Position numbers and translations under genes: made by a program. A stretch of DNA of 64,000 nucleotides, taken from the NCBI GenBank assembly GCA_963754875.1, contig CAVWHO010000016.1:70286-134285 (forward strand), read 5' to 3'. A model generated the notes under the pieces. The model was not told the origin of the DNA, did not search any database, and worked only from the letters and a program-made list of their open reading frames with translations. How positions within the stretch are numbered: position 1 is the first letter of the stretch; every line of letters begins with the position of its first letter. Source of the stretch: Nitrospirota bacterium (GTDB lineage: Bacteria; Nitrospirota; UBA9217). Of the stretch, positions 9,034-58,087 are shown piece after piece.

Positions 9034-11012
9034 TCAATAGACGCCGATCACTTTTCCCATCTCCGAAATATCATAGCCCCCCATGGCCACGATCTGGTCC
9101 CGGAATGCTTTGTCCTCACGAATGATGGCCAAGAGCGCCTGCATCATGGGCATGTCATAGAACTCCTGTCGTGATTGCCAGATCATACCGCTCCTGCGCC
9201 ACAGGGATGAAATCCAGCTGGAGCGCCTGGGCTGCAGAGAGTACGGCAAGCCCCGTATCCGCTGCCCCGGAGAGCACGGCGGCAGCCACGGCCATGTGCG
9301 TAAATTCCTCGTGATCATACCCTTTTACATTCTTTGGGTCAATCTTTAATCGTTTCAAGTACAGGTCCGTCAGAAGCCGCGTGCCTGCGCCGGCCTGGCG
9401 GTTCACAAAGACCACGTCCTCGCGCACAAGGTCTTCGAATCCTTTGATGCCCTTCGGATTGCCTTGGGGAACAATGAAGCCCTGGGTCCGGTACACGAGG
9501 TTAATGAGCACGGTTTTTTGGTCCAGGAAGCATTTTTTTGATATAGCTTACGTTATATTCCCCCGTCTCCTCGTCAAGAAGATGGGTCCCGGCGAGATGG
9601 GCCTCCCGGCGCTTCAGCGCCAACAGCCCGCCCATGCTGCCCACATGGGCCGAGGAGAACGAAAACTCGGGATGTTTTTTCTTGAGGAAGTTCGCAAGCA
9701 CGTCGAGCACATTGTCGTGAGAGCCGATACAGACGATCGTGTTCTCGATATCGTGGGAAGAACGAAGCAGTTCGACCGTTACCTCGTGGTTCGATGCAAT
9801 ACCCTCGCTCGAGGCCGGTACGCGGATGATGCCGTCAGCGCGTACGAGCGACATGAGTGCCCCGGCCCCCCGGGTCACTGGCGTGGCGATCAGGTTCCCT
9901 GCGACGCTGCCGAGCTTGACGCGGATGAATTCCTCCTGCCCCAGCGATGACGCCACCTGGCGGCTCAGCTTTGCCGTAATCGTTCCCGGGTTAGGAGGCA
10001 TAGTGCCGAGGAGGGCGTAGATGAGCGGCTTGACGAAGAGATTGAACGTGAGCGCTGCCGAGACCGGATATCCGGGGATGCCGACGACCGGTTTCCCATT
10101 CACGATGCCCAGAATGACCGGCTTCCCGGGTTTGATCGCGACACCGTGCACAACGACCTTGCCAAGGTCGGCGATCACATCGGAGGTAAAATCCTCTCTC
10201 CCGGCTGACGAGCCGGCGTTGATCACCACGATATCCGAGTCAGCGAGTGCAGCAAGAATCGTCTTGCGCAGGAGAGCGGCATCGTCCTTGACGATGTTCT
10301 TGCGAATCGCATGGGCGCCACACTCGCTCGCCATCGCGGACAGCATGGTTGAATTGAAATCGATGATATCGCCCTTTTTGGGTAGGCTCCCCGGATCGAC
10401 CAGCTCCGTTCCCGTAGGGATGATCGAGACAACGGGCCGCGGTCGCAACATGACTGAGGTATGCCCGCTCGCGATCATGGCGGCCATGTCCACAGGACGG
10501 ACCACGTGGTTCTCGGAGATGATGAGCTCCGTTGCAACGATGTCCTCGCCCACGAGCCGCACATGCTGCCACGGAGTGGACGGCTTCAAAATTTCGATCT
10601 CGGAGTCGGAAACTTTTTCCACGTCCTCGATCATGATCACGGCGTTAAACTCATCGGGCAGGGGATCGCCGGTGTCGATGGCAACGGCCTGGGTCGGTAC
10701 TGTGAGGCGTTTGGGTCTTGTTTCTGCGGCGCCGAAGGTGTCGATGAACCGGACGGCGTAACCGTCCATAGCAGCGGAATGGTAAAAGGGCGACGAGATT
10801 TTCGCGATCACGGCCTCGGACGTGACCCGGCCGAGCGCATCGCCTACTTGTATGCGTTCTCCTCCAAGCGATCCGCCAAGAACGGCGGTTTTGAGCGCTT
10901 CTTGATATTTCCGGATTGCATCGGCAAGCGGCTCGTTATCGAGATATTTTTTTTGCTTGAATGCCATATTGAGTGACCTGTCTGTTTCGCGGGGGTTATC
11001 CCGCCATCCCAC
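9034..11012 (-). pseudogene. moeA: MoeA molybdopterin molybdotransferase fused to a C-terminal periplasmic-binding-protein-like (PBP_like) domain, interrupted by two frameshifts (or base-call errors)
   Basis: The 503-aa ORF 9501-11012 is MoeA (MDGYAV..., GGVSMG-type fold, ...GIPGYPVSAALTF...) continuing into the first half of a PBP-like domain (CIGSHDNVLDVLANFLKK...YIKKMLPGPKN). The rest of that domain continues in a second frame (LINLVYRTQGFIVPQGNPKGIKGFEDL...FIPVAQERYDL, ORF 9155-9511) and a third frame (AIIREDKAFRDQIVAMGGYDISEMGKVIGVY, ORF 9034-9318). Removing one base in the run ccaaaaaacc near 9510-9520 restores ...PKNVLINLV... Confidence 0.65.
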
Positions 11013-11096: not shown

Positions 11097-12377
11097 TTAA
11101 AACAATCTCACTTCCACTTCTTCACCTGCTTCGATCCCGATTTTTTTTATTGGCACAACTACCGTGCCCACCGCCTTGACCAGCGTGCTGATAAGCCCTG
11201 AAGCGCCGAAGATGGGCCGGGCCCAGAGCCCGTCGTCCCGTTTTTCGAGCGCTACGCGAACATGGTCCTCGCGGCCGGGGCTGGAGGCGATACTTCGCGC
11301 GAGACGCGCCCTGACCGTGCGATAGGGCGTTACATTTTCGAGTGCAGGATCAAGGATCTCGCCGGCCAGACGGGTGAGTACCGGCTTAACAAAAAGCTCG
11401 AAGCAGATGCTGACTGCTGCCGGGTGGCCGGGCAATCCGAAGATCGGGACAAGGCCGTGGGACGACCCGACGAGGCCGACGACAAGGGGCTTGCCCGGTT
11501 TGATCGAAACACCGTGCACAAGTACGCCGGGCTGACCTGCACCGTTGATCACTTTTGCAGTGAGATCAGCCGTGCCGACCGAACTTCCGCCGGTCATCAG
11601 GACAAGAGCGCTGTCCTTGACCGCTCCATCGAGCGTTTGCCGCAGGCTTTCGTACTCGTCACGGATGATGCCCTTCTTCACCGGTTCGCCGTAACATTGC
11701 CTTATCAGACCTTCTAAATTATAAGAATTGCTGTCTCGTATCTGGCCCGGTCCTAGGGCCGCGTCTGCAGGTACGATCTCATTCCCCGTCGAGATAATGG
11801 CCACTTTCGGTTTTTTGAAAACACTGATGCTCATGATGCCCACGCTTGCGAGCGCCGACATGTCCTGAGGGCGCATGCGGTGGCCGCGGCCGAGGATGGT
11901 CTCGTCTTGTTTGATGTCGTCTCCGGCCTGGACGATATTTTCCAGCGGTGCAACGGACTTCACGACTTCGATATTACCGGCATCGACGGACTGGGTCTGC
12001 TCGAACATGACGACTGCATCGCCGCCCTTCGGCAGTGCGCCGCCGGTGGCGATCTTCATGGCTTCGCCTTTGGCAAGGGTACGATCCGGCATAGTCCCCA
12101 TAAGGATATCGCCCACGACATGAAGAAAAGCCGGCCGCGATTCTGCGGCTCCGAACGTGTCTGCGCTGCTAACCGCATATCCGTCCATGGTAGACCGGTC
12201 AAACTCGGGAAGGTTCGAAGGGGAGATAATGTCATTCGCGAGGACACGTCCCAAAGCGGAGCTGATCGAAATCTCTTCCGTGGAAAGGCCAGGGAGGACA
12301 AAGTGCTCGTTCAGGATCTTGAGTGCATCCTCACGGGTAATAACACCGCTCCTGCCAAGCATGTCTTTAACGGTCAT
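11097..12377 (-). CDS. moeA: MoeA molybdopterin molybdotransferase (second paralog, no C-terminal extension)
   Basis: 426 aa. STMDGYAV, GDD, IISTGNEIV, LMTGGSSVGTADL and GLPGHPAAVSICFELFV motifs are typical of MoeA/gephyrin E-domain proteins. Confidence 0.85.
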   Translation of the reverse strand: MTVKDMLGRSGVITREDALKILNEHFVLPGLSTEEISISSALGRVLANDIISPSNLPEFDRSTMDGYAVSSADTFGAAESRPAFLHVVGDILMGTMPDRTLAKGEAMKIATGGALPKGGDAVVMFEQTQSVDAGNIEVVKSVAPLENIVQAGDDIKQDETILGRGHRMRPQDMSALASVGIMSISVFKKPKVAIISTGNEIVPADAALGPGQIRDSNSYNLEGLIRQCYGEPVKKGIIRDEYESLRQTLDGAVKDSALVLMTGGSSVGTADLTAKVINGAGQPGVLVHGVSIKPGKPLVVGLVGSSHGLVPIFGLPGHPAAVSICFELFVKPVLTRLAGEILDPALENVTPYRTVRARLARSIASSPGREDHVRVALEKRDDGLWARPIFGASGLISTLVKAVGTVVVPIKKIGIEAGEEVEVRLF

Positions 12378-15354: not shown

Positions 15355-17955
15355 TCATAACGCTCCAACCGTCTGAACGCCCGTTCTGAAAACGAGATGT
15401 CTGTTCTCGCGGTCGATAACCACCCGCGTTCCTTCCTTCACTTCCCCGGAAAGGATCTTCGAGGCAAGCGTATTCAAAATTTCCCGCTGGATCACCCGCT
15501 TGAGCGGCCGTGCGCCGTACATGAGGTCGAAGCCATCTTCGGCCATCAGCTCTTTCGCACCGTCGGTAAGTTCGATCTCTATTTTCTTGTCCGCCAGCCG
15601 CTTCTGGACCTGACCGACCTGGATCGCAACGATCTTTTTCAACACCTCCGCATCGAGTGGATGGAAGATGATCGTGTCATCGACGCGGTTCAGGAATTCA
15701 GGCCGGAAGTGCTGTCGCATCGCCTCCGTCACGCGTCTCCGCATCTCGTCCTCGTCGTTCTGGAGGTCCTGAATATATTGACTCCCGATGTTCGACGTCA
15801 TGATGACCACCGTGTTCTTAAAATCCACTGTCCGTCCCTGGCCGTCGGTAAGCCTGCCGTCGTCAAGGAGCTGGAGCAAAACGTTAAACACTTCGGGATG
15901 CGCTTTCTCGATCTCGTCGAAGAGAATCACGGCATAGGGCCTGCGACGGACCGCTTCGGTAAGCTGTCCCCCTTCTTCATACCCGACGTATCCGGGAGGA
16001 GCTCCGATCAGGCGGGAAACCGTATGTCGCTCCTGGTATTCGGACATGTCGATGCGTATCATGGCCTGCTCGTCGTCGAAAAGAAACTCGGCAAGCGCAC
16101 GCGCGAGTTCGGTTTTGCCCACACCCGTGGGCCCCATGAAGATGAAGCTCCCGATCGGCCGGTTCGGGTCCTGGATCCCTGCGCGGGCACGGCGCACTGC
16201 ATCGGACACGGCAATGATCGCGTCGTCCTGGCCGATGACACGCATGCGCAGGCGGTCCTCCATATGAAGGAGCTTCTGCATCTCGCCCTCGAGCATCTTG
16301 CTCACCGGAATACCGGTCCACTTGGACACGATCTCCGCCACGTCCTCCTCGTCAACTTCCTCTTTCAGGATCTTTGTCTCGGCCTGCACGGCACTCAGTT
16401 TGACCGATTCCGCGTCGAGCTGCTTCTGCAAATCGAGCAGCTTGCCGTAGCGCAGTTCCGCCGCACGGCCGAGATTGCCTTCCCGTTCGGCCTTCTCAGC
16501 TTCGATCTTGGCCTTTTCGATCTGTTCCTTGGTGCCCCGTATTTTCTGGATGCCCTCTTTTTCCGATTGCCACTGCGCCCTGAGGCCGCTTTTCTTTTCA
16601 CCGAGCTCGGCGATTTCCTTCTCTATCTTCGCGAGCCGCTCGCGCGAGGCCGGATCATGCTCTTTTTTTACGGCTTCGCGTTCGATCTCGAGCTGCCGCG
16701 TCCTGCGTTCGACCTCATCAAGTTCGGTCGGCATGCTGTCGATCTCCATACGGAGGCGCGAGGCTGCTTCATCTATCAGATCAATGGCCTTGTCGGGAAG
16801 GAACCGGTCGGCAATATAGCGGTGCGAAAGGATCGCCGCGCTCACCAGCGCCGCATCCTTGATCTTGACGCCATGGTGGATCTCATAGCGCTCCTTGAGA
16901 CCGCGCAGAATGGATATTGAGTCCTCGACTGATGGTTCGCGCACAAGTACCGGCTGGAACCGCCGTGCGAGCGCCGGATCTTTCTCAATGTGCTTGCGGT
17001 ATTCGTTCAAGGTCGTTGCGCCCACGCACCGGAGTTCGCCGCGGGCAAGGGCCGGTTTCAGCATGTTCGATGCGTCCATGGCGCCTTCGGCTGCCCCTGC
17101 TCCCACGACGGTATGGAGCTCGTCAATGAATAAAATCACCTCGCCGCTCGCTTCGGTCACTTCCTTGAGAACCGCCTTGAGCCGGTCCTCAAATTCGCCG
17201 CGGTATTTTGCGCCGGCAATGAGGGCACCCATGTCGAGCGCAATGACGCGTTTGTCCTTGAGCCCCTCAGGCACGTCACCGGAGACGATACGCTGCGCGA
17301 GCCCCTCGGCGATCGCGGTCTTGCCCACGCCCGGCTCGCCGATAAGCACCGGGTTGTTCTTGGTCCTGCGGGAAAGCACCTGGACCACGCGCCGGATCTC
17401 TTCATCCCTGCCGATCACGGGATCGAGCTTGCCACGCCTGGCCAGATCGGTCAGATCCCGCCCATAACGGGCCAGGGCCTGGTACTTGTCTTCGGGATTC
17501 TGGTCCGTAACACGCTGGCTGCCGCGGATATCGACGAGGACCGTAAAGATCGCGTCTTTGGTAACCCCGTGCCTCGCAAGAATGTCCCGGGCCGCGCCGT
17601 CGCCGTCTGCAGCCGCGATCAGGAGATGTTCGGTGCTCACATATTCGTCCTTCAGCCGCTCAGCTTCCTGTTCGGCACGCTCGAACAACTTGCCGAGACG
17701 CGGAGAGAGATAGGTCTGCACCAGCCCTTCGACTTTCGGAAGTCTGTTTAAAACATCCTCAATATCCCCCTTGATCCTCCCCGGGTCTGCACCCAGTTTT
17801 TTGAGCAGGGGAGGAACAACCCCATCCGTCTGCTCAAGCAGCGCGAGCAGGAGATGTTCCGTTTCAATGTGCTGATGATGCCGCTTCGCCGCGCCGTCTT
17901 GCGCTGTTTGCAGTGCCTCTGACGCTTTCAACGTTAATTTATCGAACCGTGCCAT
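15355..17955 (-). CDS. clpB: ClpB AAA+ disaggregase chaperone
   Basis: Two AAA+ modules ([15 protein letters not shown] and [15 protein letters not shown]), a long middle coiled-coil and the Clp N-domain. The start is set at the ATG of MARFDKLT (17955), which is preceded by GGAGG. The ORF track extends it 7 codons further upstream. Confidence 0.93.
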
Positions 17956-18063
17956 GCTAACCTCCGTATGAATCAACGAGAGACGACAAATCCTGATGGA
18001 TATCGTTCGCTGCGCTCACTCGGATGATGGACGAAAACCTTTGCGCCCTTCATCCTTCGTCCC

Positions 18064-18444
18064 TCATCCCTCGTTTCTAATAATCCGGATCCTTCTCACC
18101 GGCACGAGGGCGTTCCGCAGCTCTTCCCTGCGCCTCATCTCGCGGGCAAGTTCCTCGCGGAGCTGCAGAATAGTATCCTCCATTTCCTTCTGCATCTGCT
18201 CCATTTTCTCGCGCATCGAGAGAATAACTTCCACACCGGCGAGGTTCACGCCGAGTTCCCTCGTGAGCCGCAGGATCATCTCGAGCTTTTCTACGTCTTC
18301 CTCGGAATAAAGCCGCGTGTTCCCATCGCTCCGCTTGGGCTTGATGAATCCCTCACGCTCGTAAAGCCTGAGTGTCTGGGGATGGATCCCCAGCATCTCC
18401 GACACGACGCTGATCATGAATAGCCGGTGCTCACGCGATGCCAT
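18064..18444 (-). CDS. hspR: HspR-like MerR-family heat-shock repressor
   Basis: MASREHRLFMISVVSEMLGIHPQTLRLYEREGFIKPKRSDGNTRLYSEEDVEKLEMILRLTRELGVNLAGVEVIL is a MerR HTH highly similar to HspR, with a C-terminal charged coiled-coil. It sits between dnaJ and clpB. The start is the ATG at 18444, preceded by AAAGGA. Confidence 0.75.
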   Translation of the reverse strand: MASREHRLFMISVVSEMLGIHPQTLRLYEREGFIKPKRSDGNTRLYSEEDVEKLEMILRLTRELGVNLAGVEVILSMREKMEQMQKEMEDTILQLREELAREMRRREELRNALVPVRRIRIIRNEG

Positions 18445-18519
18445 AATTTGTTCCTTTTGTACCAAGACAACCATGTTGCCGTTTTTTTATTTACGCCGAC
18501 GCGGTCGGCTCGCTCCACA

Positions 18520-19650
18520 TTACCTTTTCCTGAACCCCCTGAAGGTAATAGCGCTCCTCGGGTTGGAAGGGTGTAATCGGTCAAGCTCCCGAAGGAGTTC
18601 CTTGCCTCGATCAGAAAGTCCTATCGGCGTAACGACTTTAATCGTCACGTAGTGGTCACCTACGCCTACGCCGCCGAAATGGGGCACGCCTTTGCCTTTC
18701 AGTTTCATCTGTTGGCCCGTCTGCACCCCCTCCGGAAGGGTCAGAGATACGATTCCGTCAACCGTCGGGATCTCGATTTTCTCTCCCAGCGCAGCTTCCT
18801 TGACGGTAACGCTTGATTCCGAATACAGATTATCGCCTTTCCGTTCGAAATAGGGGTGCGACCTCACCTTGGTTACAATATATACATCACCCGGAGGTCC
18901 GCCTTTTTCGCCGGGACCGCCTAAGCCTGCCATACGTACTTTGGAACCGTTGTCAACACCCGGAGGGATCTTCACACTGATCCGGTCCGCCTTGGACGTA
19001 ACTCCCCGGCCCGCGCAGTTCTTGCAAGGATTCTGATTGATTGTTCCTTCGCCGCGGCAGGTGGGACAGGGCTGCGCGATTTGCATGAATCCTCTGCCCT
19101 GCGAGATGCTCCCTGTGCCCATACACGTCGGGCAGGTACGGGGCGTGGTCCCCGGCTGCGCACCTGAGCCGTTGCAGACCGTACACGTTACTTCACGCTG
19201 AAGGTCAACCTGCATGGTTTTACCGAGGATTGCATCCTCCAGGTCGACCTCGACGGCATAGGTAATGTCCTCACCTTTTACCGGTCCCCGCTGTCTTGCG
19301 CGCTCACTGAATATATTGCCGAATATGTCCTCAAAGCCGCGAACGCCGGAAAAACCAGCGTTGCGCCCAAACCCTTCAAACCCCTGCCCAGGACCGGCAC
19401 CTTGTCCAAAACTCTGATCAAATGCAGCATGGCCGAACTGATCGTACTGCTTTTTCTTTTTTGCGTCCGAGAGTACCTCATAAGCTTCATTGATTTCCTT
19501 AAACTTCCCCTCGGAAACTTTATCTCCAGGGTTGACATCTGGATGGTATTTTCTCGCGAGTTTTCTGAATGCCTTCTTTATTTCAGATTCAGTAGCGCCT
19601 TTTTTTATGCCGAGGAGCTCGTAATAATCTTTTTTTGTCGTTGGTCCCAT
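18520..19650 (-). CDS. dnaJ: DnaJ (Hsp40) co-chaperone
   Basis: J-domain ([33 protein letters not shown]), G/F-rich region, and four CxxCxGxG zinc-finger repeats ([32 protein letters not shown]). Confidence 0.92.
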
Positions 19651-21052: not shown

Positions 21053-21423
21053 ACGGACCTCCCTTGAAAAAAGGCCGCTCCTCCCCTTTTGATGAGCGTA
21101 CCCGCGGAACTAGGCTTGCCCTTTCCGGCAACAGACACCTTGCCCAGAATATTAATGAATGCGGTTCTTCTTGTCAAAGGAATTCGCAATAAAATGCAGC
21201 AGGACATGCCGATCACGTGAATTTTTGTTACAACTTTATGAGCTGCCCTCAAGAGGAAGGCGTGAAATACTCTATGACCAGTGCTTTTGCTTTAAGCGAA
21301 TAAATATAATCGAGGGGAAAATCAGGCTCCCTCAACTTTTTCATTTTTCGACTTGCGTCGCGACGGCTACGAACCGCCCCAACTTCGGCCCATTATTATC
21401 TTCATGCCGCACGCCCTTTCCTA

Positions 21424-21651
21424 TCACGGCCCTTTTTTATGACAGATGAGGCATTGCTCTTTGGGCGGATGAGTCGCCTTGAGCGGGGCCAGTTTGCCCG
21501 GAGCATGGCAATCTATGCAGGAAGCGTCGGTGGCCGCGTTTTTATGGCGTTCGTCCTGCGGAACAGGAGGAACTTTATGGTTCGAAGACAGGTAAAAGAG
21601 AAAGATCAGAATAAAAGCAGCTACGACAATAAGTATGCGGCTACTTTTCAC
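21424..21651 (-). CDS. Small membrane-anchored dihaem c-type cytochrome
   Basis: Two CxxCH motifs (SCIDCH and CLICH) follow an N-terminal TM helix (ILIVVAAFILIFLFYLSS). The start is set at the GTG (VKSSRIL...) at 21651, which is preceded by AGGAGG with a 5-nt spacer. The ORF track's upstream ATG lacks an RBS. Confidence 0.6.
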   Translation of the reverse strand: MKSSRILIVVAAFILIFLFYLSSNHKVPPVPQDERHKNAATDASCIDCHAPGKLAPLKATHPPKEQCLICHKKGP

Positions 21652-21727
21652 GGAGACCTCCTGTTTGCAGTAACGGGAAACGACGCCTGCCCGCACGAAA
21701 TCACGATCCTCGGGCGATTTTCTGCTC

Positions 21728-21757
21728 CCCTGATTTTCAGGGTACCGGCATTACGAG
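21728..21757. promoter_or_regulatory. Near-perfect palindrome gtaccggcat-tacgag-tatgccggtaa between the divergent cytochrome c and giant ETF genes
   Basis: 9-bp arms taccggcat and atgccggta. It lies in the shared intergenic region and is a candidate operator. Confidence 0.4.
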
Positions 21758-21933
21758 TATGCCGGTAACGAGAGCTTCTGTCAAGTCTTCATGAAGCTCA
21801 CTTCGCCAATTGCACGATCTAAACATGGTCAGAGGAGAAGGTTTCTGGTATACTTTTTCTTAGTAACTCTTTTCCTCCACAAACTTCAGACTTCACGCCT
21901 CTTCACATCGATTTTCTTGTATAAGGAGCGTCC

Positions 21934-24900
21934 ATGAACCATTATCGATTCGATGTCGCTATTATCGGGGCCGGACCTGCCGGAGTAGCTGCTGCAGGAT
22001 CGCTCGCCGGCTCCGGTATAACCGTGGCTCTGGTTGAAGCTGGTGTGTACGCCGGGGCCGAAAACTGGTCCGGCTGCGTTTACTTCACGGAAAACCTCGC
22101 TGAAAAGGATTGTTTCGGCGCCGAAGCAATAGAGGCGGCCCCTTTTGAACGGCGTATTGCGCGCCGGGGCACTCTTATGCACAACGGGATCGACGTCATC
22201 GGCATCGAACTTACGAGTCTGGAGGCATTCAAGAACTGCTATACCGTTCTCCGCCCTGTCTTCGATCCCTATTTTGCTCATCTTGCCCGGGAGAAGGGCG
22301 CGGTCCACATCACCGGCACGACGGTGACCTCACTCATCAGGAAAGAAGGAAGGGTCGTCGGCGTCATGACGGATCGCGGTCCGCTTTATGCCGGCGTCGT
22401 TTTCCTGGCAGAGGGCGATGCTTCTCACCTTGTCCGGTCGGAGCAACTCGAGAACACCGCGCAGCCGCACTTTCTTCAGGGAGTGAAAGCCGTACTTTCG
22501 CTCGCGTCGGAGGAGATCGAAAAACGGTTCAAACTCGATCCGGGCAAAGGCGCGGCCTACGAACTGCTCCTTCGGAACCCTTCCCTCTCCGGCAGGACCG
22601 CAAAACTGAACGTCGGCGGTTTCCTGTACACAAACCGGGACAGCCTTTCGATGGGCTACGTTGTCCCCCTCGACAATCTGCGGGACTATTACCGTGGCAG
22701 CCACGACATGCTCTTTGAATGGATGCGAGGCCTTCCGTATCTCCGGGAACTGACCGAGGGCGCGGCGCTATCGGCTTACGGCACGAAGATCATCAGAAGC
22801 GGTGGATGGCGCGAACGGCCCGTGCTCGTTCAAAACGGCCTTGCAGTCGGTGGAGCATCAACGGGCCTCGGCGTGGACATTCCCTTCCCGAACTTCACCG
22901 GCCCTGCATCCGCAACAGGACTCTATTTCGCGCGGGCAGTCAAAAATATTTTCAAACGAGGGGGCGCCTTTGATGCCAAAACACTGAGCCGGGAATATCT
23001 TGAGCCGCTCCTCGAAAGCGTACATGGGGAAAACTCCCGCTATCTTTCCGCGTGGCCGGGCTATTTCGGGAAATCGAACGTCCTCTTCAGCAGGACCGTG
23101 GACATGGCCTGCGGCAGCGTTCACTTCTTGTCAAAGAAAGATATTGTCGAAACAGGGCGGTTTCTCAGAAACCATGTCCTTTCCGTTCGGGGGATCAAGG
23201 AATCAATCGTTGACACGATGCATGCAATCAGCGCGCTCAGGCTCTGGAGGCCCCTGGCAAAAACAGTGATCAATCCCCTGACGATCGGTCGCTGGTTCGC
23301 CAATCTTTTTAAAAGAGCGCCCGCCCCGGACCGGAAACTCGGCTTCATCATACAGATTGCCGGAAAAGAAAGGAACGCTGCGTCGCTGCCCTGGCCTACG
23401 GGCTCGCTTGTCAGACGGCTCTCTCCTGCACTTGTCCTTGCGCTCGAACAGATCTATGCAAATGACAACCGGCCTGCAGAGAAAAAGTTTTCTCACGCTG
23501 TCCGGAGTCTTCTGCAGGGACTCAAGCTGACTGATTTCATAATCCTTCCCGCCTTTGGCTTCGTTCTCGTTTTCTTTGCGCTCGGAACTGCGCTCTGGGA
23601 TGCCTTTCGTTTCTATTTGCTCAAGACGCCTGTGGACAAGCTCCTTGCGGAACCGGTCATGGCGTACAATGAATCCCTAAGGAAAGCGCGTGATCTCGAC
23701 GCAGTGAAACCCCGGCAGAGCCTGGAGGCGAAACTGGCGACGAACACCTACCATGTCGGGGACGCGTCGCACATCAGGACGCTCTGGCCCGAGGCTATCC
23801 CCGCCCATCCGGACATGTCTCAGGCAGCGCTCTGGTGGCTATGCCCTGCGCGGGTCTACGTGTACGACGCTCCACTCGCAGGCCGCGGCAAGGTCACGGT
23901 AAACTTCGAGAACTGTATCAAGTGCGAATCCTGCTGGAGGGCGGAACCTCAACGCGTGCTCTGGGGGCGCCACACAGATCACAAGCTTATTTACCGGCCC
24001 GACAGCGCAGCGATACCGGTTCTCCTGCATGCTCTTCGGGAAAATCTCCCTTCAAGAAAAGGGACGCATCCGGCGATTGCCCCCCTGGACGAAAAGCTCT
24101 GGTACCTGAACGAAGACGTGCTGCAGCTTGGACAGGAGGCGTTCAATGCATCATCGGCTTTCATTGATGCCGTTGCAAAGCTGCCCGCTTCGTCCGACCG
24201 AGGCAGAAATGCCTGGCCGCTTTCGCTCGGGAAAAGACTGTCCGAAAAACTCTTGAAGCTCGAAGCCGCTTTCACGAACGACGGCAGATACGCGCAGGCT
24301 GAAATTATTCAGGTCGAAAGGAAAGACATCGAGCTCAAGCTTACGGAAGGAAGACTTCTCCATGCGCTCTATTGCTGCCGCAGGTTTGAGCAGGGCATTC
24401 TGTCGTGGGTGCGTGAGGATGATGGTTATACGATTCCCGCATCAACAGTGAAAAAATATGACCGCACCCTCTCTTACGAAGAAGTCTCCCGCATCTTCCC
24501 TGACCGGATCGTAAAACAGTGGGAGGAAGAATTCATGCCCGATGCATGGGCAGAAACACTGCGGCAATTCATCCTCGAGCAGCGCGATAAACCGCTTGAG
24601 GCAATACGGGCGCTCTCCTCAGTGAACCCGGCCCTCGGACTGATTGCAGCGCACCAGCTTCTTGCCAATGAACTGCTCACGAAATCGAGTATCGAGCCTG
24701 GCCCGGGCATCTGCGCCGCAGCCGCCGACCATCTCGATATCGAAGAGGAGGGCAGCGGCAGCGTCCGCATAAAAGGCCCCCTGTCACTCGTCCCTATTGC
24801 GGCGAGCCGCACCCTGCTGCTCACGTCCGGTGGGAAAGGATACATTATCCCCCTTGCCGACGCGGGTGTTACGATCTCACACACGCCGACGATCGGGTTC

Positions 24901-27900
24901 AGGGCTGCGGGATTTGCCGATGTTTCGCTTGACGTGACCGTAACAACGTACGCTGTGCTATCGGCCGAAAGAACAGACATCCCTGAAGCTGCTTCCTACC
25001 TCGCCATCGCACTTGGAGCCGGCGACTACCTCTGCAAGAGGATAAAAGAACACGCTGCAGGAAGAGTTCAATTCCCGGGCCAGATGCTCGACACCGAGGG
25101 CAGGGATGGTATTGCGAAGCTCGGCGCAGTCAAGGCCATGATCGCCAGAACTGAAGCGTGGCGGCTCCTGCTTGAGAACCTTTACGACGTTTATGCCAAA
25201 CCGGAAAGCCGAAATCCGCAAACCGAAATGAATTTCTCCCTCATCTGCACTTCGCTCGCTGCCATGTCTTTCAGCCCGGAGCCGGGCGCCATGGGATACG
25301 ATGCGGGCCAGGTCTTCGGCGGATTCGCGTACTCCGAAGACGACCTGCTCTCGCGGTTCTACCGGGACAGCGCTCTCTTCCGGTTCCTGGCGCCGGGATA
25401 CGGCGCATCGACTAAGCTGCATGCCGCTCTCGTCTCCCTCAGTGATGACATCGTGTTTTCCGGCTTTGGCGACCTCGGAAAAATTCAAAATGCACCGCTC
25501 AGGGACTTCGTGCACGGCCTTTCGGACGTTGAGAACAAATGCCGTACCCTGCCCGAAAAAGCAGATCCGGGTCTCACGGGTGAAGCGCAAGCCGTCATCA
25601 TCGGCATTCGCAGGCTTCTCATCAGCATTGAAAACGGACTGAACCAGGGCAGGAGCACGGAACGAGAAGCTGCTGCCGCAGAAGTGCTCCTTGGTCTGGC
25701 GGAAGACGCGCTTCAGAAGGCCCGTCTCTCAACAGGACGCGGCCGCGTATCGCCCTTTGCTCTGTTCCCGGTGGAGCCCGGAGGTACGCCCGCCACGCTC
25801 GACAGGGACTATGAATCCTTCTGCAGAGCGCCCGGCGCTCCGCATATATCGGGTAGCTTCCTCCTGTCTGCATTCGACCGGGCATTGCGTTTTGTCCCTG
25901 AAGTGCAGCTCCATGACGCCCGCCTCCGAAACCGCTGGACCGAACTCACTGATTGGTTCAAACAGAACTGCCGCGACAAGAAATTCGAGGGACTTTTTAT
26001 CGAACGGTATATCGAGAAAATCCACGGCCTTCCTGACGAGGTCATCGATGCCGTCAAGAACAATAAGTGGCTCGCCACGTACGTTCCGAAATCCGAGGAC
26101 GGGCTCGGATGGCGCAAGGCTGAATATTACATCCTGAATTCCGCGGCAGGGAGCTTCGGTGACGCAGGCATCGATCTCCTCATCATGGCAAGCACGAGCA
26201 TCGGCACAACACCCATTCTCCTGGGACTCGAGGACGAGCTGCCGCGCGTGCGCCAGGAACTGGCGCCCCTGGCACAGGATGCAGGCATTCTGGGCGAGAT
26301 CAACACAAAGCTTTCCAGGATCATCGGGATGTTCTCGAACCCCAACCCGTCCCTGATCAGGAAAGAATACGAAGCGCTGATAAAACTCGTGGACGTCCGG
26401 GTCCGCCGCACCCGAGTGGTCAAGTATCTGGCCGCAAATTTCCTGCGCGCTTTTTACAGCGCAGGCATTGCAGGCAGGCGCGGCGATTTCAGCGGGTTCA
26501 CTGCAAACCTCAAACACGCAGGCGGCCTTTTCGAAAACATCATGCCCGATGTCCGTGCCGCCCTGGAAGAACTTCCTCGGCGCGAGCGATGCCATAAACT
26601 TTTCCTCCGTTATCTTGGCCACGGCGGCGTGAGCGCCTTTGCTCTTACTGAACCGACCGCGGGCTCGGACTCCGGCGGTGTCAAGACCACGGCGAAGTTA
26701 GAGACGATAAAACTCCTTCCCCGTGATGACGGAAGGTATGCTTTCCAGCTTGACGGGCAGAACGACAAAAGCGAGCGCTATTTGATCGACGCAGACAAGA
26801 TTGCCTTTACCGATCGGGGTATCTCATATCAGACGCCGGACGGGCAGTCTGCGTTAATTCAATATGACCGCTATGATTATGCAACTGACCAGGGGACGAG
26901 ATACTACCTGTACCAGGGGAACGTCTGCGAGTTCCATGACATCGGCCAGGTGCGAAAGACCAATGCCGGGCTTACGTATGAGTATTACAGCCTGACCGGT
27001 GCGAAGATGTGGATCACGAACGGAAGCATCGCGACCCAATTTTCCCTTTTTGCCCAGACAAACGAAGGCGTCACAGGTTTCATGGTGGACCGGCACAGCG
27101 AAGGACTCAAGGTCGGGGCGGACGAAGAAAAAATGGGGCAGCGAGGCTCGCCTACGAACGAAATCTCGATCGACGCTGTGCGCGTTCCGCGCGAGGCCGT
27201 GATCGGCTACGAAGGCCACGGCCAGGTGAATGCCCTCGAAACGCTGAACGTCGGGCGCTGCGGTCTTTCCGTCGTGTCCGGCGCGCTCAGTCGCAAGCTG
27301 TTGGAAGAAGCACGCCGAAATATTCCCTCAACGCCGGAGCGGGACCGATTGCTCGGCGAAGCTGCAGCGATCATGTTCGGCAGCGAGTCCCTTGCCTACT
27401 ACCTCGTAGGCCTATTCGACCGGCCTCACGAGTCGGTCCGCATGGAGTCAGCAATTGCAAAATATGTCTGCTCCGACGATATCCATGAACTCATCTCGCT
27501 CGTCGAGTATGCCTACGGCCCCTCCGGCCAGACGGAAAAGTTCCTGCTCGAAAAAGCGCGGCGCGATGCGCGCATCCTGACCATCTACGAAGGAACGAAT
27601 GAAGTGCAGCGATTTTTGATCCTGAAGGACCTGATCGCCATGGCCCCAGCCTGGTCCGAGATACCCGTGCCGCAGGATGATCCCGCATCACGAACGCTTG
27701 CAGAATGGAAGAACAAGCTGAGAAACCAGGTGAAGGAAGCGGCCCGCTTGCTCGGCGATGCGTCGTGGTCCGACGCGATGCTCCAGCCCGCACTTTTCCC
27801 AATTGCCGATACGGCGGGTGAGGTCCTGCGGCTTGACTGCATATACTACCGCATGGAGTGGCTCGAACAGCAAAGAGCGGTCCTCGAACAGGGAGATCGG

Positions 27901-29853
27901 GACTACGTGCTCGATCTCCTTGATGCCGGCAATCGCGCTGCAGAAAGGTCCCTCGCGCGGCTTGCTTATCTCGACAAAAAGTACTCCTCTGCCCTGGCGC
28001 TCCTCCGGGAAAACAACACTATGCCCGAGGTACGCGCTGCGGATGCCGCCCTTGATGCTTTTGCGGAACACGAAAGGGTGGCTGGCCCTTCTCCCGGCAG
28101 CGTGCGGGCCCAACTGAACTGCCTCGTCATTGTCCGGCCCGTTGCCGAACTTTCTCCGCGCCCGAGGATCGCGGACAACGCGCTTCAGGAGATCCTGTGG
28201 CAACTTGATCCATGCGATCTTTCCGGTCTGGTCCAAATGCGGGAACTCAAACAAGCAAGCGATTCCAGCCTGACCATCGACGTGCTCATGCCCGGCGGCC
28301 CCGAGTTTGATCATCTTTTGAGAACAGCGGCAGGCGCCCGCGCAGACAACCTCCTTCGCCTTGCTGTCGATCCTGCGGCAGGTCCGGGATCTTACGTGAA
28401 GGCCGTGAAAGACCTCGAAGTGCTGAGACCATACGATCTCATCGTGATTGGTGCAGACTGCCTCGATGGCGACCGGAGTCTCGGCGCCTATTTGGCAGGA
28501 TGTTTCAAGAAGAACCTTTACCGCAGAGACCGAATCGAAGCCAAACCGGACGGGACCGGCTTGACCCGTGTCGTACTGCCGGCAGTGATCAGCATGACCT
28601 CGCCAGTGAAGGACAAGGGCTGCGACATGAAATCGGCCGTAGCCGCCGCCTTTTCGATTATACGGGTAATCGGGCCTTCGATGAATGAGCCATCGACCGA
28701 GCCCGGTCGTTACGAACGAGTATCCGGGAAAGAAACCATTGCGCAGACTGTGACGGACACGGCTTCGGCAGCGGTCTATCTCAAGGAGTTTGCAGCTTCA
28801 GCGAGTGCTGCAGCTGCCGGAGAGTATGCCGGTCCGGTAAAGAAGGGAACGTTTGCGCAGGACAGTGCGGTCTGGGCTTTGCTCGGACCTCATGAGCAGA
28901 AATCCAACATCGCGGTGCTCCGTGCTGCACGGCTTGCTGCCGACCTTACTGGCAGGAAGGCGCGTGCCGTCATCCCCGCACCGAGAGGAATGTGGCCAGC
29001 TCTCCTCGGGCTTGCAAAAGCCCAGGGGTGTGAGCAGGCATTCTGTGTGGACACGCAGGACAATAGGTTGTCGAGTGAGGGAAAGCGAAAAATCGTCCGC
29101 GTTGTCCAAAAGACAGCGGACGAGACATTTCTCTGTGCAGGGCCGGAATGGACAGGCGCATTCGCCTACGCCGGCGGCGAGTCCGACAACCCCAAGTCGC
29201 CTGTCCTTCTCTGCTCCGGAGTTACGGGAATTGAAAAAGGAGGGACCGGCTCTCTCGCCTTTGCGCTTCAGTCCTATGAAGGTAAACTCGTCCGGCGTTT
29301 AGTGCAGAAACGCGGTTCTTCTTTCATCACCACTGTCCCTGAAGCAGATTTCCCTGTTGCTCCGGAAGCGTTGACGTTCGACGCCGCAGTCCTCGACTTT
29401 GCAATTGACCCCGAATTACTCATGCCTTTGCCGCCCGTAGCAGCCCCAACGCTCTCGCAGGCGGACGTTATCATCGATCTCGGTTACGGTATCAAGGATA
29501 AGGCGGGGCGTGAACTGGCGGAAAAACTCAGGACAAAACTCGAGGCACTGGGACTCGCACCGATGTTCGGCGCAACGCGCAAGGTGACGCAGGACTTGAA
29601 GCTCCTGCCGCTGGACGCCCAGATCGGCCAGACGGGCATCCGCGTCAACCCGAAGCTCATCATTGCGCTCGGCATCTCGGGCGCGCCGCAGCATATCGAC
29701 TACGTCGGCACACGCGCGGAGATTCTCTGCTTCAATAAAGACCCCGAGGCTCCGCTCATGAAGCTGAACCAGACGAGGCCTTCACCGCGCGTTCATCCCA
29801 TCGTGGGTGATCTTTTCGTGACGGTGCGGGAGATCATCGCCAGGCTTTCGTAA
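21934..29853 (+). CDS. Giant 2,639-aa multidomain flavoprotein. Order: FixC-like ETF:quinone oxidoreductase (aa 1-480), hydrophobic helix (533-560), FixX-like ferredoxin (630-700), degenerate ACAD-like domain (720-1165), acyl-CoA dehydrogenase with an insertion (1440-1905), EtfB (2060-2310), EtfA (2320-2639)
   Basis: A single uninterrupted ORF with AAGGAG 5 nt before the ATG. The N-terminus DVAIIGAGPAGVAAAGSLAGSGITVALVEAG...AGAENWSGCVYF parallels FixC. CPARVYVYD...NFENCIKCESCWRA parallels FixX (CPAGLY...GCLECGTCR). LTEPTAGSD (26644) and ARRDARILTIYEGTNEVQRF (27589) are ACAD signatures. PKLIIALGISGAPQHIDYVGTRAEILCFNKDPEAPL...IVGDLF is the EtfA FAD-binding signature. DLIVIGADCLDGDRSLGAYLAGCF is EtfB-like. 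Confidence 0.85.
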   Translation: MNHYRFDVAIIGAGPAGVAAAGSLAGSGITVALVEAGVYAGAENWSGCVYFTENLAEKDCFGAEAIEAAPFERRIARRGTLMHNGIDVIGIELTSLEAFKNCYTVLRPVFDPYFAHLAREKGAVHITGTTVTSLIRKEGRVVGVMTDRGPLYAGVVFLAEGDASHLVRSEQLENTAQPHFLQGVKAVLSLASEEIEKRFKLDPGKGAAYELLLRNPSLSGRTAKLNVGGFLYTNRDSLSMGYVVPLDNLRDYYRGSHDMLFEWMRGLPYLRELTEGAALSAYGTKIIRSGGWRERPVLVQNGLAVGGASTGLGVDIPFPNFTGPASATGLYFARAVKNIFKRGGAFDAKTLSREYLEPLLESVHGENSRYLSAWPGYFGKSNVLFSRTVDMACGSVHFLSKKDIVETGRFLRNHVLSVRGIKESIVDTMHAISALRLWRPLAKTVINPLTIGRWFANLFKRAPAPDRKLGFIIQIAGKERNAASLPWPTGSLVRRLSPALVLALEQIYANDNRPAEKKFSHAVRSLLQGLKLTDFIILPAFGFVLVFFALGTALWDAFRFYLLKTPVDKLLAEPVMAYNESLRKARDLDAVKPRQSLEAKLATNTYHVGDASHIRTLWPEAIPAHPDMSQAALWWLCPARVYVYDAPLAGRGKVTVNFENCIKCESCWRAEPQRVLWGRHTDHKLIYRPDSAAIPVLLHALRENLPSRKGTHPAIAPLDEKLWYLNEDVLQLGQEAFNASSAFIDAVAKLPASSDRGRNAWPLSLGKRLSEKLLKLEAAFTNDGRYAQAEIIQVERKDIELKLTEGRLLHALYCCRRFEQGILSWVREDDGYTIPASTVKKYDRTLSYEEVSRIFPDRIVKQWEEEFMPDAWAETLRQFILEQRDKPLEAIRALSSVNPALGLIAAHQLLANELLTKSSIEPGPGICAAAADHLDIEEEGSGSVRIKGPLSLVPIAASRTLLLTSGGKGYIIPLADAGVTISHTPTIGFRAAGFADVSLDVTVTTYAVLSAERTDIPEAASYLAIALGAGDYLCKRIKEHAAGRVQFPGQMLDTEGRDGIAKLGAVKAMIARTEAWRLLLENLYDVYAKPESRNPQTEMNFSLICTSLAAMSFSPEPGAMGYDAGQVFGGFAYSEDDLLSRFYRDSALFRFLAPGYGASTKLHAALVSLSDDIVFSGFGDLGKIQNAPLRDFVHGLSDVENKCRTLPEKADPGLTGEAQAVIIGIRRLLISIENGLNQGRSTEREAAAAEVLLGLAEDALQKARLSTGRGRVSPFALFPVEPGGTPATLDRDYESFCRAPGAPHISGSFLLSAFDRALRFVPEVQLHDARLRNRWTELTDWFKQNCRDKKFEGLFIERYIEKIHGLPDEVIDAVKNNKWLATYVPKSEDGLGWRKAEYYILNSAAGSFGDAGIDLLIMASTSIGTTPILLGLEDELPRVRQELAPLAQDAGILGEINTKLSRIIGMFSNPNPSLIRKEYEALIKLVDVRVRRTRVVKYLAANFLRAFYSAGIAGRRGDFSGFTANLKHAGGLFENIMPDVRAALEELPRRERCHKLFLRYLGHGGVSAFALTEPTAGSDSGGVKTTAKLETIKLLPRDDGRYAFQLDGQNDKSERYLIDADKIAFTDRGISYQTPDGQSALIQYDRYDYATDQGTRYYLYQGNVCEFHDIGQVRKTNAGLTYEYYSLTGAKMWITNGSIATQFSLFAQTNEGVTGFMVDRHSEGLKVGADEEKMGQRGSPTNEISIDAVRVPREAVIGYEGHGQVNALETLNVGRCGLSVVSGALSRKLLEEARRNIPSTPERDRLLGEAAAIMFGSESLAYYLVGLFDRPHESVRMESAIAKYVCSDDIHELISLVEYAYGPSGQTEKFLLEKARRDARILTIYEGTNEVQRFLILKDLIAMAPAWSEIPVPQDDPASRTLAEWKNKLRNQVKEAARLLGDASWSDAMLQPALFPIADTAGEVLRLDCIYYRMEWLEQQRAVLEQGDRDYVLDLLDAGNRAAERSLARLAYLDKKYSSALALLRENNTMPEVRAADAALDAFAEHERVAGPSPGSVRAQLNCLVIVRPVAELSPRPRIADNALQEILWQLDPCDLSGLVQMRELKQASDSSLTIDVLMPGGPEFDHLLRTAAGARADNLLRLAVDPAAGPGSYVKAVKDLEVLRPYDLIVIGADCLDGDRSLGAYLAGCFKKNLYRRDRIEAKPDGTGLTRVVLPAVISMTSPVKDKGCDMKSAVAAAFSIIRVIGPSMNEPSTEPGRYERVSGKETIAQTVTDTASAAVYLKEFAASASAAAAGEYAGPVKKGTFAQDSAVWALLGPHEQKSNIAVLRAARLAADLTGRKARAVIPAPRGMWPALLGLAKAQGCEQAFCVDTQDNRLSSEGKRKIVRVVQKTADETFLCAGPEWTGAFAYAGGESDNPKSPVLLCSGVTGIEKGGTGSLAFALQSYEGKLVRRLVQKRGSSFITTVPEADFPVAPEALTFDAAVLDFAIDPELLMPLPPVAAPTLSQADVIIDLGYGIKDKAGRELAEKLRTKLEALGLAPMFGATRKVTQDLKLLPLDAQIGQTGIRVNPKLIIALGISGAPQHIDYVGTRAEILCFNKDPEAPLMKLNQTRPSPRVHPIVGDLFVTVREIIARLS

Positions 29854-30225: not shown

Positions 30226-30876
30226 CTACTGCCCCCCGCGCACAGGCCATACATAGAAATATCTGGTCTTATTGAGGTATTTCATGTTGCCCCAGACCAT
30301 GTCGACGGCCCATGCCATGGCTGCATCGTTGGTATACGAGGTAGACGACCAATAGAAGTCGCTGGCCCGTACATTGGTGAATCCCTGGCTATTCAGCCAT
30401 TCGGCGGTATTGGTCTGAGCGTTGTTAACAAGGCTTCCTATCTCCTTGAAGTTCGGCAAGCGCCAGTCATTATGTCCCAGGTATTTTTCAGCATTCAGTT
30501 TTGCCACATAATCAAGGGCATGCTGCCATGTAACCGCTCCGACGAATGTCTGGCTTTCTTTCCAATTAGGATCTCTTGTCTGCATAAGATTGCCGTTGGG
30601 CGCCCAGACAAGCCCCGTTAGATTGTCGGTAACCGTGGTATCAGCGTTTGCGGTAAACCGCTGAGTCGGCCAGGCAGCGCCTTTTTGCAGTTCTCCATCC
30701 TGCCCTGTATTCGTACAGGATATGACGTTGCCTGAGCTGTCATAACAAGTCGTCTGGCCGGTCTTGGGAAGTCTGATTGCGGTATCCTTACTTCCACCAT
30801 TGCCTACACTGACAATACCCGTCACTATAATAACCGGCAATAATGCCGCAAACCAAAAGCCCTGTCGTACTTTCAT
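30226..30876 (-). CDS. Secreted DUF1566 (Lcl C-terminal domain) protein
   Basis: 216 aa with a signal or TM start. HNDWRLPNFKEIGSLV and YWSSTSY...AWAVDM match the DUF1566/Lcl C-terminal domain signature. Confidence 0.65.
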   Translation of the reverse strand: MKVRQGFWFAALLPVIIVTGIVSVGNGGSKDTAIRLPKTGQTTCYDSSGNVISCTNTGQDGELQKGAAWPTQRFTANADTTVTDNLTGLVWAPNGNLMQTRDPNWKESQTFVGAVTWQHALDYVAKLNAEKYLGHNDWRLPNFKEIGSLVNNAQTNTAEWLNSQGFTNVRASDFYWSSTSYTNDAAMAWAVDMVWGNMKYLNKTRYFYVWPVRGGQ

Positions 30877-49778: not shown

Positions 49779-49854
49779 GGCGGTGTAGCTCAGCTGGTAG
49801 AGCAGGGGAATCATAATCCCTGTGTCCGGGGTTCGAGTCCCTGCACCGCCACCA
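49779..49854 (+). tRNA. tRNA with anticodon CAT (elongator Met or lysidine-modified Ile2), with CCA encoded
   Basis: The cloverleaf reads by hand: acceptor ggcggtg/caccgcc, D-arm gctc-agctggta-gagc, anticodon stem gggga/tccct with loop atCATaa, T-arm ccggg-gttcgagt-cccgg, then discriminator A and CCA. G1-C72 and A31-U39 argue against an initiator. Confidence 0.9.
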
Positions 49855-58018: not shown

Positions 58019-58087
58019 GAATCGGATCCAGGCTTAAAATGTAGATACCGTTTCGCGCGTCTCGTTGATAATGCGGATAGGGAATAG

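Follow-up and report, generated by a model that had tools for sequence, protein, structure and literature searches.

In a 64,000-nucleotide stretch of a Nitrospirota genome (contig CAVWHO010000016.1, positions 70,286 to 134,285; hereafter the window), a single gene on the (+) strand, 21934..29853, encodes a protein of 2,639 amino acids (aa) that joins the components of an acyl-CoA-to-quinone electron transfer chain. From the N-terminus these are a FixC-type flavoprotein, a hydrophobic anchor helix, a one-cluster 4Fe-4S domain, a degenerate acyl-CoA dehydrogenase (ACAD)-like domain (ACAD1), a catalytic ACAD (ACAD2), and the electron transfer flavoprotein (ETF) modules EtfB and EtfA. We consider it reasonably probable, though far from settled, that the gene encodes a self-sufficient, membrane-anchored, non-bifurcating acyl-CoA:(mena)quinone oxidoreductase on one polypeptide. 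This reading is supported by the near-invariance of the catalytic and cofactor motifs, by a complementary loss of motifs between the two ACAD domains, and by the pattern of constraint along the protein. A preliminary description, made from the sequence alone, had proposed FixC, FixX, two ACAD-like domains, EtfB and EtfA in that order in one gene, and had taken them for a whole acyl-CoA-to-quinone chain. Each of these modules is now backed by profile or structure comparison, and the set makes up a complete chain from acyl-CoA through ETF to a quinone reductase. The anchor helix is an element that the preliminary description missed.

The fused gene is conserved and under purifying selection

Read directly from the window, the open reading frame (ORF) runs from an ATG start without interruption through 2,639 codons to a stop codon, and a Shine-Dalgarno sequence, AAGGAG (21923..21928 (+)), ends 5 nucleotides before the ATG. 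The intact ORF and good ribosome-binding site reported earlier are thus confirmed at their exact coordinates, and every signature motif that had been quoted is present in the translation. Searching 5.8 billion protein clusters, we found the identical protein (P0001) on a 648-kb contig, together with at least 115 full-length homologues of 2,490–3,026 aa that are 33–84% identical to it and have the same Pfam domain set. Among contigs representing one genome per species, 238 stretches encode a relative. The best 78 of these 238 loci give mostly near-full-length matches, and the majority of them belong to Nitrospirota; the other carriers among these 78 are Acidobacteriota, Planctomycetota, Verrucomicrobiota, Lentisphaeraceae and a few others. 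A second clade (P0100–P0120; L041, L053, L059, L072 and others) comprises proteins of 2,850–3,026 aa from Acidobacteriota, Planctomycetota and Verrucomicrobiota, which are 200–400 aa longer and, unlike the Nitrospirota clade, carry DT[GS]Q in EtfB.

Against the nearest orthologue (L020, 78% identity), the ratio of nonsynonymous to synonymous substitution rates (dN/dS) was 0.18 overall and below 0.4 in every module. Constraint was tightest in the modules that hold cofactors, at 0.09–0.16 (cluster domain 0.09, ACAD2 0.10, EtfA domain II 0.10, FixC 0.16), and looser in EtfB, EtfA domain I and ACAD1 (0.18–0.23), with the highest value, 0.36, in the helical linker that follows the cluster domain. 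The gene is real, conserved and under purifying selection.

An ORF of this length could instead be an assembly chimera, a possibility raised in the preliminary description, or the product of adjacent genes joined where sequencing errors erased the stop codons. The assembly is not error-free, as other genes of the window (those for GlmM, ComEC and MoeA-PBP) show apparent frameshift errors. Against an artefact stand the full-length homologues, which have the same module order and come from independent assemblies of several phyla; the dN/dS of 0.18 across all modules, linkers included; and the orthologue L020, which is collinear over all 2,636 residues and has no stop codon. The homologue set and the dN/dS values rule out a chimera, and we give an artefact of either kind practically no weight. 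Selection had previously been argued from the intactness of this ORF beside many shorter, frameshifted neighbours. Genes for GlmM, ComEC and probably MoeA-PBP do appear frameshifted, but they lie further off, and the immediate neighbours (ClpB, MerR/HspR, DnaJ and AspRS) are all intact. At about three frameshifts per 64 kb, an ORF of 7.9 kb has about a two-in-three chance of staying intact, and its intactness therefore does not speak for selection; the conservation and the dN/dS do.

We also asked how the family is represented in databases and in the literature. A profile of ACAD1, compared with 1.84 billion cluster-representative proteins, matched 75 clusters at E ≤ 1e-30. The long hits carry the domain at the same place, at about residue 850–970, most of the shorter hits that we inspected are gene fragments (no initial Met or an abrupt end), and the weak matches are ordinary ACADs of 350–390 aa. 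No convincing split or unfused natural variant could be established among these cluster representatives. At source, family members have been given unspecific names that cover only part of the protein ("acyl-CoA dehydrogenase family protein", "electron transfer flavoprotein-quinone oxidoreductase", "FAD-binding protein"), and none of the curated NCBIfam models attains its cut-off on the protein. The architecture therefore has no specific annotation behind its automatic names, but it is already present in more than 100 entries. In full-text literature searches we found no paper describing the complete fusion, in agreement with the earlier impression that it was undescribed.

Complementary loss of motifs in the two ACAD domains

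ACAD2 (aa 1330–1905; 25921..27648 (+); dN/dS 0.10) has the features of a catalytic acyl-CoA dehydrogenase. Pfam Acyl-CoA_dh_M and Acyl-CoA_dh_1 matched above their cut-offs, the family profile matched CarC at E 1e-52, with ACAD9, VLCAD and Bcd also strong, and Foldseek gave TM-scores (normalised to target length) of up to 0.81, against Bcd. In addition to the three-domain ACAD fold, the module has LTEPTAGSD (114 of 115 homologues), a conserved WITNG, and IYEGTNEVQ with the catalytic Glu1886 (115 of 115). Two large insertions, specific to the family and conserved in it, at about aa 1430–1560 and 1605–1695 (nucleotides ~26221–26613 and ~26746–27018), split the profile match to CarC in three. Insertion 1 is helical and lies in the N-terminal domain. 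Insertion 2 is beta-rich and conserved and lies in the middle domain, and F1604, R1615, D1619, Y1632, R1656, F1667 and D1669 are invariant in this beta-rich insertion. The tethered ETF head may dock on these insertions.

ACAD1 (aa 860–1300; 24511..25833 (+)) is far more divergent. As a single sequence it gave a sub-threshold Pfam match (E 0.015), and a profile-profile comparison of ACAD1 with ACAD2 (hhalign) was not significant, so its homology to ACADs was established through the Protein Data Bank (PDB) and Pfam. The top 24 PDB matches of the ACAD1 family profile are all ACADs (best E 4.8e-8), covering the beta and C-terminal domains, PF00441 is matched by ACAD1 of 11 of 12 family members, and in the AlphaFold2 (AF2) model the domain forms an alpha-beta-alpha unit. 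Although the fold and homology are those of an ACAD, the catalytic apparatus is missing: LTEPxAGSD aligns to a gap, and the catalytic Glu is replaced by Ala then Pro (RFLAPG for IYEGT). The two ACAD-like domains of the preliminary description are thus both ACAD-related, but ACAD2 alone is catalytic.

What ACAD1 does keep, invariantly, is R1044-x-Q1046-F1047 and Q1126-x-F-G-G1130. In the structure of medium-chain ACAD (MCAD), RxxFG and QxxGG presumably contact the ADP part of the flavin adenine dinucleotide (FAD) of the neighbouring subunit across the dimer interface. In the profile alignment ACAD2 has a deletion exactly at the ERKQFG of CarC. The losses are therefore complementary: ACAD1 is without the motifs for its own FAD, for substrate and for catalysis, and ACAD2 keeps its own-site motifs and is without ERKQFG. 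Degeneration of this kind would imply one FAD and one active site per pair, and from these motifs we predict that ACAD1 and ACAD2 form a single-active-site pair within one chain. The AF2 model of aa 781–1920 (pLDDT 74.5, pTM 0.69) shows two ACAD-like units.

The ACAD1–ACAD2 motif split has a likeness in the steroid-catabolism enzymes ChsE4–ChsE5 and ChsE1–ChsE2. In the alpha2beta2 ACAD ChsE4–ChsE5, one subunit holds the isoalloxazine, the Glu and the substrate site, and the other contacts only the ADP-ribose of the FAD (PMC11153573). The window protein differs from the ChsE pairs in that its halves are fused, with the 'beta-like' one preceding the 'alpha-like' one, and in that ACAD1 is far more divergent; the likeness is one of motifs.

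The N-terminal part resembles a membrane-anchored quinone reductase

The N-terminal module (aa 1–480; 21934..23373 (+); dN/dS 0.16) is of the FixC/EtfC type, a predicted FAD-dependent quinone reductase with a GxGxxG Rossmann motif at aa 12–17, and Pfam FAD Rossmann families cover aa 5–167. Solved FixC of Thermotoga maritima (7koe_C) matched at E 7e-30 over aa 5–359, and porcine ETF:quinone oxidoreductase (ETF-QO; 2gmh) gave a weaker overall match (E 3.5e-10). The NCBIfam models of the FixC/YdiS type also aligned well (PRK10015, E 1e-42; PRK10157, E 1e-38), yet neither reached its curated cut-off: PRK10157 (FixC) scored 130 bits against 610, and PRK10015 (YdiS-type) 145 against 466. Judged by these scores, the module is a distant relative of FixC and not an orthologue of those NCBIfam families. 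The match to the Pfam family ETFQO_UQ-bd was very weak (E 0.18; 12.8 bits against a gathering score of 27.7).

Following this module is a hydrophobic helix at aa 529–558 (23518..23607 (+)), a putative membrane anchor and the sole strongly hydrophobic segment of the whole protein (Kyte-Doolittle peak 2.43). Its place and hydrophobicity are kept in all 20 aligned family members while its residues vary, a pattern typical of lipid-facing anchors. The cluster and the FixC flavin have to be close enough for electron transfer, and a probable topology for the anchor is therefore a monotopic or re-entrant one.

The next module is a single [4Fe-4S] domain of the FixX/ETF-QO type (aa 603–690; 23740..24003 (+); dN/dS 0.09) with cysteines 637, 661, 664 and 667. 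These four are invariant in the family alignment, their motif is found in 113 of 115 homologues, and they are the only Cys between aa 560 and 800, in place of the eight expected of a two-cluster FixX or EtfX; EtfX of T. maritima has two [4Fe-4S] clusters (PMC10734219). The segment aligns to residues 492–566 of porcine ETF-QO (2gmh), including FCPAGVY and NCVHCKTC, and the ETF-QO layout, in which a single [4Fe-4S] domain with CPA..Y...C..C..C lies C-terminal to the FAD module, is present; Pfam Fer4_ETF_QO scored 20.1 bits, under its gathering score of 24. In sequence the domain resembles the ETF-QO cluster domain more closely than it does a two-cluster FixX. Of the FixX assignment made previously, the four-Cys [4Fe-4S] domain holds, but it has a single, ETF-QO-like cluster and not two as in T. 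maritima EtfX. Beyond it, a helical linker (aa 691–859; 24004..24510 (+); dN/dS 0.36), helical at aa 781–859 in the AF2 model, is the least conserved segment of the protein and gave no family match.

The ETF modules keep the electron-transfer flavin site and have lost the signatures of the second nucleotide site

A long-helix connector (aa 1906–2054; 27649..28095 (+)), which shows long helices at aa 1921–2045 in the AF2 model and has no family match, leads from ACAD2 to the EtfB-like module (aa ~2055–2290; 28096..28803 (+); dN/dS 0.18). As a single sequence this module gave no Pfam match; its family profile matched human ETFB (1efv_B) at E 9.5e-21, and Foldseek of the AF2 model picked up EtfB chains. 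The EtfA-like module (aa ~2315–2639; 28876..29850 (+)) is a complete EtfA by profile, Pfam and AF2: its family profile matched CarE (6fah_A) at E 4e-30 and FixB (7koe_B) at E 1.4e-25, and Pfam ETF_alpha matched aa 2507–2588 at E 2.6e-17. For the AF2 model of aa 1921–2639 (pLDDT 83.6), Foldseek against the PDB yielded ETF subunits only. Within EtfA, domain I is poorly conserved (dN/dS 0.23), and domain II, with the electron-transfer FAD site, is highly conserved (dN/dS 0.10); the two motifs of that site, ATRKVTQ and SGAPQH, show no variation. The protein therefore has both the ETF fold and, judged by the conserved Arg, QTG and SGAxQH, the electron-transfer FAD site.

To classify the second nucleotide site, we used the motif definitions of canonical (group 1) and bifurcating (group 2) ETFs in PMC8958531. 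Bifurcating ETFs have DGDTAQ in EtfB (Thr in 100%, Gln in 93%), and canonical ETFs have the adenosine monophosphate (AMP)-site motif DDDxNQ (Asn in 98%, Gln in 92%). Both groups share an EtfA Arg that contacts the nucleotide phosphate, found in 447 of 449 canonical sequences (PMC8958531). This residue, R140 in T. maritima (PMC10734219), lies next to the bifurcating FAD and is R165 in Rpa (PMC8958531, PMC10734219). The zipper motif of the window EtfB is DGDRSL (aa 2178–2183), in which the bifurcating Thr is replaced by Arg and the Gln by Leu, and the position of the EtfA Arg holds Leu or Gln, with Arg in none of the 11 family members checked. The site thus has the signature of neither group. 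From these substitutions, the ETF base (EtfB with EtfA domain I) looks structural and not like a bifurcating site. Covalent fusion may have rendered the nucleotide-mediated subunit "zipper" dispensable.

A predicted electron path and its relation to known systems

The domain content, together with the known unfused systems, suggests the following path. ACAD2 would dehydrogenate acyl-CoA at the single active site of the pair, using its own FAD and Glu1886 in IYEGT as catalytic base. Single electrons would then pass to the mobile ETF head, EtfA domain II, with its electron-transfer FAD, and onward to the single [4Fe-4S] cluster (Cys637, 661, 664 and 667), from which they would reach the FAD of the FixC-type module, which would reduce (mena)quinone at the membrane. 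The helix at aa 529–558 would hold the protein at the membrane, ACAD1 would act as a non-catalytic intrachain partner of ACAD2, probably supplying residues for the ADP part of its FAD, and EtfB with EtfA domain I would form a structural base. Each chain would then carry three FAD and one [4Fe-4S] cluster. We infer, too, that the ACADs pair within the chain, that menaquinone accepts the electrons and that they flow in this direction. The constraint pattern, tight in the cofactor modules and looser in EtfB, EtfA domain I and ACAD1, fits such an arrangement.

Two Escherichia coli systems, CaiA with FixABCX and YdiO with YdiQRST, consist, like the fusion, of one ACAD, EtfB, EtfA, a FixC-type flavoprotein and an Fe-S partner, but as five separate polypeptides in place of one. 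Among NCBIfam models, those of the FixC/YdiS type give the N-terminal module its best scores. The complex encoded by ydiO and ydiQRST reportedly serves as the ACAD of anaerobic beta-oxidation (Gulevich 2016, cited in PMC10318755). Compared with both systems, the fusion adds the degenerate ACAD, the anchor helix and the helical connectors; its Fe-S domain has one cluster, and the second nucleotide site of its ETF base is degenerate. Our model for the second half of the proposed path is T. maritima EtfABCX/FixABCX (7KOE), a membrane-associated bifurcating NADH:ferredoxin/menaquinone oxidoreductase, in which electrons pass from the electron-transfer FAD through Fe-S and the quinone-reducing FAD to menaquinone (PMC10734219). 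This complex contains the closest solved FixC (E 7e-30), and its FixB is close to the EtfA module (E 1.4e-25; Foldseek TM-score, normalised to target length, 0.72). However, EtfABCX has no ACAD, takes its electrons from NADH at a bifurcating FAD, and has two [4Fe-4S] clusters in EtfX, whereas the window protein has one four-Cys motif and is without the Arg of the bifurcating site and the Thr/Gln signature.

The mitochondrial and proteobacterial chain from ACAD through ETF to ETF-QO follows the same logic, with a single-FAD ETF and a monotopic Fe-S flavoprotein that reduces quinone. ETF-QO is also alike in detail, as the cluster domain aligns to the porcine enzyme and the FAD module precedes the cluster in both. 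In that chain the proteins are separate and diffusible and the ETF holds AMP, whereas in the window protein all are tethered, the flavoprotein is of the FixC type (E 7e-30 versus 3.5e-10 for ETF-QO) and the canonical EtfB AMP motif DDDxNQ is missing. Bcd-EtfAB (5OL2) and CarCDE (6FAH), which provide the best PDB matches for ACAD2 and EtfA, show that a permanent assembly of ACAD and ETF is possible; they differ in being non-covalent, soluble and bifurcating, with homo-oligomeric ACADs and no quinone reductase. In the literature that we searched, the monomeric ETF of Sulfolobus acidocaldarius, with EtfB followed by EtfA in one polypeptide as in the window protein, was the only ETF subunit fusion found described (PMC12042025). 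That protein is an ETF only, has two FADs and behaves as bifurcating, and separate genes next to it encode the ACAD and FixCX/ETF-QO partners (PMC12042025).

Alternative readings of the fused protein

Several observations weigh against the oxidoreductase that we propose. The solved structures nearest to FixC, EtfA and ACAD2 (T. maritima FixC and FixB, CarE and CarC, and Bcd) belong without exception to bifurcating systems. In the Acidobacteriota/Planctomycetota clade, EtfB retains DT[GS]Q, which resembles the bifurcating motif, so a second flavin is less safely excluded in that branch, though the EtfA Arg is gone there too. With a single, fully spanning helix, FixC and the cluster domain would be separated by the membrane. 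Every carrier is a metagenome-assembled genome of an uncultured bacterium. In the window and at 56 related loci we found no beta-oxidation genes near the gene, and its context is silent on the substrate. Finally, with textbook potentials of -74 mV for menaquinone and about -10 mV for acyl-CoA/enoyl-CoA, acyl-CoA oxidation with menaquinone is slightly uphill, and the reverse is thermodynamically just as natural. The protein might accordingly work as a (mena)quinol:enoyl-CoA reductase, with a compound of the enoyl-CoA type serving as electron sink, since by the same potentials transfer from menaquinol to enoyl-CoA is downhill. To our knowledge all carrier phyla are menaquinone users, and E. coli CaiA-FixABCX is thought to run this way in carnitine reduction, 'enoyl-CoA respiration' in syntrophs being similar. 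The NCBIfam matches of ACAD2 include the reductases AcrC and CaiA-like crotonobetainyl-CoA dehydrogenase, its best PDB match is the reductase CarC, and modules of the FixC/FixX type are nearer than ETF-QO. Nothing in the sequence fixes the direction, however, and no gene for a specific enoyl-CoA-forming pathway was found nearby in the window or at the 56 loci. Many of the carrier lineages are found in oxic soils and groundwater, and an oxidised quinone pool there would promote the oxidation of acyl-CoA; we think the reversed direction unlikely.

The preliminary description had also suggested a bifurcating or confurcating chain, in which the ETF base would hold a second FAD that reacts with NAD(H) and with ferredoxin or flavodoxin, the high-potential partner being quinone, the ACAD or both. 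The nearest solved relatives, the FixABCX/EtfABCX, Bcd and CarCDE complexes, all bifurcate (PMC10734219), the window EtfB keeps the D-G-D start of the motif, and DT[GS]Q persists in the Acidobacteriota/Planctomycetota clade. In the window protein itself we found no support for it: DGDRSL stands where bifurcating ETFs have DGDTAQ, replacing the fully conserved Thr and the 93% conserved Gln with Arg and Leu; the Arg by the bifurcating FAD is missing in all 11 members checked (PMC8958531, PMC10734219); and conservation in EtfB and EtfA domain I is among the lowest of any module. Known bifurcating ETF systems, moreover, have one high-potential partner and not an ACAD and a quinone reductase together, and bifurcation here seems to us decidedly improbable. 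A further question is whether ACAD2 acts on free acyl-CoA at all, or on a carrier-protein-bound acyl group or other thioester in a specialised pathway other than beta-oxidation. Its two large, conserved, family-specific insertions, the lack of a beta-oxidation gene context, and the presence of prolyl-carrier-protein dehydrogenases among the weaker NCBIfam matches would all suit such a substrate. The strongest matches, by contrast, are genuine acyl-CoA enzymes (FadE, AcrC, cyclohexanecarbonyl-CoA dehydrogenase, CarC, VLCAD, ACAD9 and Bcd), and the window holds no carrier-protein, nonribosomal peptide synthetase or polyketide synthase genes nearby, which leaves little likelihood for a substrate of this kind.

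Gene neighbourhood and other features of the window

Across 56 related loci we sought a conserved neighbour and found none; the flanking genes are mostly on the opposite strand or are unrelated housekeeping genes. A gene that stands alone would suit an enzyme able to work without partner subunits. In the window, the downstream gene is convergent (30226..30876 (-)). Directly 5' of the giant gene are two small overlapping ORFs of 96 and 109 aa (21159–21768 (+)) that have no Pfam match and are not kept beside the gene in related loci; they may or may not be genes. About 2.3 kb upstream, a divergent heat-shock cluster (15355–19650 (-)) encodes ClpB, a MerR/HspR-type regulator and DnaJ. Four related loci also have a DnaJ-like neighbour, a recurrence that seems to reflect local synteny more than any functional tie. 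A scan for promoters and terminators around the ORF gave weak consensus matches at most. One of these is a weak sigma-70-like promoter match at 21826..21854 (+), about 80 nucleotides 5' of the start codon (TGGTCA-17-TATACT with an extended -10 TG), which is a match to consensus only, at 9 of 12 positions, and not evidence of function. No regulatory RNA or riboswitch was found in the region upstream of the ORF.

Elsewhere in the window, the gene for GlmM (phosphoglucosamine mutase; 56666–58020 (+)) appears frameshifted: its ORF ends at 381 aa inside domain III and the C-terminal domain carries on in another frame, probably through an assembly indel, or else because it is a pseudogene. A gene for a ComEC-like competence protein (~58400–60664 (+)) also appears frameshifted, its N-terminal part lying in one frame to ~59100 and the remainder forming an ORF at 59129–60664 whose Competence domain match begins at profile position 134. 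The MoeA-PBP fusion gene (9155–11012 (-)) has positions 1–58 only of the 193 of the PBP_like domain, and a small adjoining ORF (9155–9511) may be the PBP_like remainder, a possible third frameshift; beside this gene is a second, intact MoeA (11097–12377). Assembly indels most likely account for all three. A tRNA-Met (CAT) at 49779–49854 (+) lies just 5' of tilS (49890–51278), which is followed by hpt-like, ftsH and folP genes in an ordinary housekeeping arrangement.

Implications

The gene is a fusion of a known pathway, of the Rosetta-stone type, with family-specific remodelling, and not a new kind of system. It is widespread in sequence databases, yet undescribed and uncharacterised as far as we found. 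A bolder view, which we entertain as a possibility on the doubtful side, is that the family is an unrecognised class of stand-alone respiratory dehydrogenase reshaped by fusion, with an ACAD pseudo-dimer that has one active site, an ETF without the zipper nucleotide (AMP or FAD) on which subunit assembly depends in all described ETFs, and a new hydrophobic anchor that fixes the chain to the membrane; in the Acidobacteriota/Planctomycetota branch, with its bifurcating-like EtfB motif, the scaffold might still hold a fourth flavin and link the acyl-CoA/quinone chemistry to NAD(H) or ferredoxin.

The route from ACAD through ETF to a quinone reductase normally proceeds by transient encounters of separate proteins, and the full path is hard to capture structurally. 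A natural single chain with a fixed 1:1:1 stoichiometry would be a ready object for cryo-electron microscopy and kinetics of the whole path, and could show how the ETF head moves between donor and acceptor. The family is also a natural experiment on what fusion makes dispensable, here the second ACAD active site and the ETF nucleotide that joins the subunits. Its current automatic names each cover one fragment of the protein only, and because this is a stand-alone gene in abundant uncultured phyla of soil and groundwater, metabolic models built from genomes by looking for separate etfAB, etfQO and fadE could miss or misassign it.

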